From the IMG/VR virus record IMGVR_UViG_2529292836_000013: 6,857 nt of DNA; one strand, 5' to 3'. Below the pieces are notes generated by a model. The model was not told where the DNA came from. It made no database searches and saw nothing but the letters and a program-made list of their open reading frames with translations. This DNA comes from a virus (Duplodnaviria > Heunggongvirae > Uroviricota > Caudoviricetes). The translations under genes were made by a program, and so were the position numbers. Position 1 is the first letter of the stretch; every line of letters begins with the position of its first letter. Of this stretch, positions 6,275-6,857 are shown in pieces.

Positions 6275-6595
6275 ATGAACGCAAAAATCAGATACGGCCT
6301 GTCGGCTGCCGTTCTGGCACTGATTGCCGTCGGTGCGCCCGCGCCTGATATTCTCGACCAGTTTCTGGATGAAAAAGAAGGTAACCACACAACGGCATAC
6401 CGCGATGGGTCCGGCATCTGGACCATCTGTCGGGGTGCCACGATGGTGGATGGAAAACCCGTTTTTCCCGGTATGAAACTGTCGAAGGAAAAATGCGACC
6501 AGGTCAACGCCATTGAGCGTGATAAGGCGCTGGCATGGGTGGAGCGCAATATTAAAGTACTACTGACCGAACCACAAAAAGCGGGTATAGCGTAA
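6275..6595 (+). pseudogene. SAR endolysin (T4-lysozyme-like, phage 21 R21 type) truncated after about 105 codons by an IS insertion
   Basis: N-terminal Gly/Ala-rich hydrophobic segment MNAKIRYGLSAAVLALIAVGAPAP, then an E-x8-D-x5-T catalytic spacing (EGNHTTAYRDGSGIWT). The frame ends at a TAA (6593-6595) lying inside the IS terminal sequence GTAAGCG. Typical full length is roughly 165-177 aa. Confidence 0.75.
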
Positions 6596-6857
6596 GCGAC
6601 TCGTCAGAACCGTATTGATATTTACTGAGAGCTCAGATCAACTTTCCAGGGCAACAGATCGCGTACCCGGTTTGCCGGCCAGTCCTGGATATGTTCAATG
6701 ACGTAACGCAGCCACTTTTCTGGCTCCACATTGTTCAGACGGCATGTGCCGATCAGCGAGTACAACACCGCCGCATGTTCACCACCGCTGTCGGAACCCG
6801 CGAACATCCAGTTTTTCCGGCCTACGGCCACTCCCCGTAAGGCGTTCTCTGCGATGT
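6592..6857 (-). mobile_element. IS66-family insertion sequence, terminal part only (continues beyond the window)
   Basis: Terminus begins GTAAGCG at 6592, as recalled for IS66-family inverted repeats. A transposase C-terminus is encoded on the minus strand immediately inside. The boundary is approximate. Confidence 0.7.
6622..6857 (-). CDS. IS66-family transposase (TnpC-like), C-terminal end; 5' part lies outside the window
   Basis: Minus-strand frame is open to the window edge and reads ...IAENALRGVAVGRKNWMFAGSDSGGEHAAVLYSLIGTCRLNNVEPEKWLRYV...LLPWKV, matching the conserved IS66 transposase tail (ENALRP.A.GRKNWLFAGS...LYSL..TCKLN...LLP) as I recall it. The track start at 6831 is only an internal GTG. 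Confidence 0.75.
   Translation of the reverse strand, partial: IAENALRGVAVGRKNWMFAGSDSGGEHAAVLYSLIGTCRLNNVEPEKWLRYVIEHIQDWPANRVRDLLPWKVDLSSQ

Follow-up and report, generated by a model that had tools for sequence, protein, structure and literature searches.

Prophage lysozymes of the phage 21 R, RrrD and RrrQ type have in common a GH24 domain of the T4-lysozyme type (PF00959), and structures of related lysozymes have been solved for RrrD (PDB 4zpu) and for R21 (3hde and 3hdf). The canonical lysozyme triad is E-X8-D-X5-T, and SAR domains are described as N-terminal, weakly hydrophobic segments preceded by a few basic residues (PMC9239132). In the R21-type arrangement, the endolysin gene has the gene of an S21-type holin as its neighbour and an Rz-type spanin gene downstream. 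Genes disrupted by insertion sequences (IS) have also been found in cryptic or defective lambdoid prophages of E. coli, where a phage late gene is inactivated by the IS. Among IS, ISCro1 was first named in Citrobacter rodentium, and changes of gene expression caused by ISCro1 insertions are on record, for example at the afa promoter of ST131 (PMC8764528). The locus described here has the R21-type arrangement, with an endolysin gene that is interrupted by ISCro1.

The DNA analysed, called here the window, is a stretch of 6,857 nucleotides whose reverse complement occurs with 100% identity in the E. coli NCCP 13717 chromosome (NZ_CP115984.1). The corresponding NCCP 13717 locus is referred to as L001, in which positions are obtained by adding 5801 to the window position. 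A lambdoid prophage contributes its early-right and late region to the window, with the gene order hokD, frameshifted DUF968, rusA, Q antiterminator, two tRNAs, iraM (minus strand), DUF1737 remnant, class II holin, ydfR and the start of the lysozyme gene. Upstream of DUF968, rusA and Q, the relF-type hokD (94-249, plus strand, 51 aa) encodes a type I toxin and is typical Qin-like prophage cargo. The DUF968 gene (988-2036, plus strand) is broken up into the overlapping ORFs 988-1632 and 1491-2036 and is annotated as frameshifted in RefSeq, a lesion that is independent of the IS. The two phage-borne tRNAs are located downstream of Q on the plus strand, at 3385-3460 and 3561-3635; the first is called tRNA-Met (CAT) by ARAGORN versus tRNA-Ile by RefSeq, the second is tRNA-Arg (TCT), and a tRNA-Ile is the sole tRNA annotated between Q and the holin in the prophage stretch of strain M217 that was compared. 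The iraM gene (4549-4884, minus strand), coding for an RpoS-stabilising anti-adaptor, is a moron-like insert on the opposite strand of the late region, and the DUF1737 remnant lies at about 5145-5330.

The 5' fragment of the SAR endolysin gene (6275-6595, plus strand) corresponds to codons 1-106 of 177, followed by a TAA derived from the IS. In the ORF list the frame runs from the ATG at 6275 to the TAA at 6593-6595, which makes 106 sense codons with the stop as codon 107. The first-pass annotation, made from the letters of the window and its ORF list, had placed the end of this frame at codon ~105, at a TAA within the GTAAGCG of 6592-6598; the stop and its position were borne out, and the number of sense codons has to be corrected to 106. 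The same annotation had pointed out a SAR-like N-terminus and the E-x8-D-x5-T catalytic spacing, and both were recovered. Residues 7-24 (YGLSAAVLALIAVGAPAP) are uncharged, consist to 50% of Gly/Ala/Ser/Thr, have a mean Kyte-Doolittle hydropathy of 1.6 and are preceded by K4 and R6; the N-terminus is thus SAR-like, and an uncharged Gly/Ala-rich segment following basic residues is likewise found in the R21 type. This spacing is formed by E35, D44 and T50. When aligned by phmmer (E=9.3e-16), each of the three coincides with its counterpart in phage 21 R (PDB 3hde), in which the triad is E35/D44/T50 as well.

Over its whole length the fragment agrees without a mismatch with residues 1-106 of the intact M217 lysozyme, and it matches PF00959 (Phage_lysozyme) with E=2.1e-09 at model positions 2-68 of 125, whereas the intact 177-aa endolysin covers model positions 2-125. 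Residues 107-177 are missing, a loss of 71 aa or about 45% of the lysozyme domain model, so that the complete catalytic domain with both lobes is absent from the window endolysin. Compared to R21, the intact allele is longer (177 aa versus 165 aa) and only distantly similar, a ydfR (DUF1327) gene is placed between holin and endolysin, and the window copy stops at residue 106. As judged from its sequence, the window endolysin is what remains of a truncated phage-21-R-type SAR lysozyme and would not be a functional member of that type.

Intact forms of this gene are common. Among the 5,426 complete E. coli genomes, 4,364 contain the endolysin gene over at least 80% of its length, and the same allele is found intact, with 100% identity, in two dozen other genomes among the matches listed. 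The identical 177-aa protein is also encoded by deposited Escherichia phage records, such as those of vB_EcoS-640R1 and vB_EcoS-813R8, and the endolysin of PhiR49_2 is 98.9% identical to it. With the 5' endolysin query, a second place is matched in the NCCP 13717 chromosome (two places in total at megablast sensitivity).

The uninterrupted endolysin allele of strain M217 served as the empty-site reference, and the ends of the IS were defined by five other ISCro1 copies, carried by four chromosomes and one plasmid, which all begin with GTAAGCG and end with CGGTTAC, each within a different perfect 8-bp duplication. Similarity of the window to thousands of intact lysozyme genes ends at 6593. BLAST identity to the intact genes extends this far because the native bases at 6592-6593 are also G-T; the five independent ISCro1 copies, with GTAAGCG as their first bases and an individual 8-bp duplication alongside, place the start of the IS at 6592, and a start at 6594 was rejected on the same ground. 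The exact terminus, which the first-pass annotation had left to be fixed by alignment to IS66-family references, is thereby settled.

At the left junction, the sequence ...AAAGCG GGTATAGC is followed by GTAAGCGACTCG..., and at the right junction ...GAGCCGGTTAC is followed by GGTATAGC GTCATTCTGT..., that is, the right IS end CGGTTAC, then GGTATAGC, then GTCATTC. The M217 allele reads AAAGCGGGTATAGCGTCATTCTGT across the site, and the intact alleles read AAAGCGGGTATAGCGTCATTC. The left copy of GGTATAGC is at 6584-6591 and the right copy at L001 15092-15099. Since GGTATAGC flanks the IS on both sides and is single in the M217 empty site, it represents an 8-bp target-site duplication. In NCCP 13717, the 3' part of the endolysin gene comes directly after the far IS end and the duplicated target, and in-silico removal of the IS together with one duplicate yields a gene of 534 bp that is 100% identical to the M217 lysozyme gene. 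The far IS end, the target duplication and the remainder of the endolysin gene, all of which were expected beyond the window, are therefore in place. It should be noted that the terminal inverted repeat and the target duplication were established by direct script comparison; a generic repeat finder buried both among chance pairs.

The stop codon is formed at this same junction. Codon 106 is composed of the last two target bases, GC, and the first IS base, giving GCG for Ala as in the native gene, and the next codon is the TAA made of bases 2-4 of the IS end (6593-6595, plus strand; (6593-6275) mod 3 = 0), at the place where the native gene continues TCA TTC TGT. The first-pass annotation had proposed that an IS66-family element truncates the endolysin and that the IS end supplies the stop, a reading that the empty site and the reconstruction establish at base-pair resolution. 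A chance GTAAGCG next to an unrelated minus-strand ORF was ruled out by the Pfam matches, the empty site, the target duplication and the other IS end. TAA occupies bases 2-4 in both IS ends (GTAAGCG and GTAACCG), so that any insertion in the right one of three frames terminates translation at once; the IS-supplied stop is a property of the IS end combined with a one-in-three chance and has no further significance.

The window holds the first 266 bp of the 2,699-bp ISCro1 (6592-6857, minus strand), the full element being located at L001 12393-15091. Its tnpC-proximal terminal inverted repeat, GTAAGCGACTCGTCAGAACCGTATTG, occupies 6592-6617 and begins at the same base as in the five ISCro1 copies; the two terminal inverted repeats are imperfect, with 18 of 26 positions matching between GTAAGCGACTCGTCAGAACCGTATTG and the reverse complement of the other end, GTAACCGGCTCATTTAAACCGTCTGG. 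The 3' end of tnpC, the gene of an IS66-family DDE transposase, follows at 6622-6857 on the minus strand, with the last 77 of its 523 codons in the window. This fragment (6622-6855, minus strand, 77 aa) matches PF13817 (DDE_Tnp_IS66_C, E=3.5e-17) and the end of PF03050 (DDE_Tnp_IS66, E=1.3e-05), in agreement with the IS66-type transposase C-terminus that had been recognised on this strand. On the minus strand of L001, the full operon comprises TnpA (14361-15038, 225 aa, HTH_Tnp_1), TnpB (14014-14361, 115 aa, PF05717 TnpB_IS66, E=4.7e-40) and TnpC (12423-13994, 523 aa, PF03050, E=2.5e-103, together with PF13007 and PF13005, the leucine-zipper and zinc-finger IS66 domains). Both an IS66-type inverted repeat and a transposase, whose lack downstream would have spoken against the insertion, are therefore present.

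A start with GTAAGCG is typical of IS66. The transposase domains, the tnpA-tnpB-tnpC layout, the GTAA(G/C)CG termini and the 8-bp duplication show that the element belongs to the IS66 family; its name is that of the RefSeq/PGAP annotation, 'IS66-like element ISCro1 family'. The operon tnpA-tnpB-tnpC, the termini GTAAGCG/GTAACCG and the 8-bp duplication are shared with ISCro1. The length differs, with 2,824 bp quoted in PMC8764528 versus 2,699 bp here, as bounded by the target duplications. Full-length ISCro1 copies with 100% identity or one mismatch to the NCCP 13717 element are found in many E. coli chromosomes and plasmids, and 8 places matching ISCro1 occur in the NCCP 13717 chromosome. The NCCP 13717 element carries a private G-to-A change at L001 14758 (IS position 2366), which results in A94V in TnpA (WP_276376994.1) and is absent from the five otherwise identical copies.

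We consider it almost certain that ISCro1 transposed into the endolysin gene of the ompW lambdoid prophage of NCCP 13717, as a recent, strain-private and probably neutral event that involves no adaptation. The 2,699-bp element would have inserted at codon 106 of a 177-aa phage-21-type SAR lysozyme gene and duplicated the 8-bp target, with its GTAAGCG end landing in the frame that exposes the internal TAA, so as to stop translation immediately. The predicted product is a 106-aa fragment consisting of the SAR membrane anchor and the N-terminal lobe with E35/D44/T50, minus the C-terminal 71 residues. If the prophage were induced, depolarisation by the S21-type holin would still be lethal to the cell, and the murein would be left uncut by the prophage's own enzyme.

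The state of the prophage and the distribution of the junction bear on the age of this event. The prophage measures about 45 kb, from an ompW 3' remnant (~2,836,828) to an integrase gene beside the intact ompW (~2,882,152) (loci L008 and L009). It keeps integrase, excisionase, exonuclease, dicB, repressor-type HTH genes, Q and a lysis cassette with a spanin gene, as well as the morphogenesis genes for terminase, portal, protease, capsid, tail, tape measure, J and tail-fibre. The junction between IS and endolysin was found in one of the 5,426 complete E. coli genomes (a place being counted when it covers at least 80% of the junction query), and it was not found in 50,697 phage records, in which no match passes 6593. 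Since the insertion is private to one genome, its flanks are 100% identical to the intact alleles and its target duplication is perfect, it is recent, and these data point to a private hop of an active IS. According to RefSeq, the other pseudogenes of the prophage are the frameshifted DUF968 gene, a small ORF with an internal stop and the DUF1737 remnant; with these, the prophage may have been non-viable before the insertion.

These observations also weigh on the view that the insertion is an adaptive domestication, in which the host gains from the cargo of the prophage (iraM, hokD, the tRNAs and iss) and the prophage is held in place by the loss of its endolysin. Genes of the cargo type, namely hokD, iraM, the two tRNAs and iss, do flank the lysis cassette, and a few other genes of the prophage are pseudogenes. 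However, a junction seen in a single genome, while the allele is intact elsewhere, together with the identical flanks and the perfect target duplication, speaks for a very recent event; int, xis and complete morphogenesis modules are kept; and the occurrence of ISCro1 at 8 chromosomal places fits random hopping. Adaptive domestication is therefore very unlikely. The statement of the first-pass annotation that pinholin and upstream cargo are retained in a domesticated element is not supported for this prophage, with its int, xis, Q, head and tail genes and its private, recent insertion, and an old domesticated remnant is likewise unsupported, the prophage being essentially complete. The iss gene, coding for a serum-survival lipoprotein, is located at L001 15806-16099 (minus strand), just downstream of the spanin-type gene.

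Upstream of the endolysin, the window encodes a class II holin of 71 aa (5641-5856, plus strand), a homologue of the phage 21 S pinholin that matches PF04971 ('Bacteriophage P21 holin S', E=9e-33) over model positions 1-63 of 64 and is annotated in RefSeq as 'class II holin family protein'; the designation as pinholin given beforehand is thus supported. By its homology and its pairing with a SAR endolysin, the protein would form nanometre-scale holes and cause membrane depolarisation only. It begins with M-D-Q-M-E-K and has two possible starts, Met1 and Met4, like the 71/68 pair of S21, and its three-residue N-terminal extension has no basic residue. The corresponding extension of S21 is MKSM. 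On this comparison, any antiholin/holin regulation of the window holin may differ from that of S21. The ydfR-family gene (DUF1327) lies between holin and endolysin at 5861-6211 on the plus strand (PF07041, E=5.3e-42; RefSeq). The strongest terminator-like hairpin of the scanned region, with a 12-bp stem and a T-run, is at 5574-5602 on the plus strand (L001 11375-11403), about 40 bp upstream of the holin start.

The Rz-type spanin gene ('lysis protein' in RefSeq; L001 15313-15774) overlaps the 3' end of the endolysin gene and is now 2.7 kb downstream of the endolysin 5' fragment. When the IS was examined by consensus scan for terminators and outward promoters on the late-transcript strand, consensus matches, terminator-like hairpins among them, were seen at background frequency only. 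Because a T4-lysozyme-type fold is left without its C-terminal part, the window endolysin copy is almost certainly inactive, and the proposal of the first-pass annotation that the prophage is probably lysis-defective is reasonable for this copy, for which domain loss is the basis. NCCP 13717 has a second endolysin homologue elsewhere in its chromosome, which could complement the disrupted copy if co-expressed. The S21-type holin is intact, and induction should therefore still be lethal through depolarisation, with no cleavage of murein by the disrupted endolysin.

A different reading gives the remnant or the insertion a role of its own: the 106-aa product, made from the late transcript, would act as a membrane-tethered decoy against related SAR endolysins or on the pinholin timing of co-resident or superinfecting lambdoid phages, or the IS would turn the prophage into an element that kills without lysis on induction. 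We regard this as very improbable. Finally, the 106-aa product might be taken for an endolysin that is short by nature, or for a SAR-domain protein with a function, and the retained SAR anchor and all three triad residues could be cited for this. The idea has next to no probability and as a natural length is refuted by the empty-site comparison: intact homologues, for which a length of only about 105 aa would have spoken against a truncation, are 177 aa (534 bp) in 4,364 genomes as well as in deposited phage records, the missing 71 codons stand directly after an IS with a duplicated target, and the Pfam match stops at model position 68 of 125.

Taken together, the results leave transposition of ISCro1 into the endolysin gene as the preferred reading, an unremarkable case of a prophage gene disrupted by an IS that existing annotation already records. 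In RefSeq, the endolysin halves on either side of the ISCro1 genes are both entered as pseudogenes, each a partial 'glycoside hydrolase family protein', and these calls are confirmed here. In contrast to the cryptic or defective lambdoid prophages, the NCCP 13717 prophage is otherwise still essentially complete, and its insertion is confined to a single strain. The finding has little significance beyond NCCP 13717 and opens no new question. It does provide a clean example of the inactivation of a phage lysis gene by an IS66-family element, with an empty site, an 8-bp duplication, both IS ends and an IS-donated stop. For NCCP 13717 itself, the prediction is that the ompW prophage, if induced, would be unable to lyse the cell with its own endolysin.
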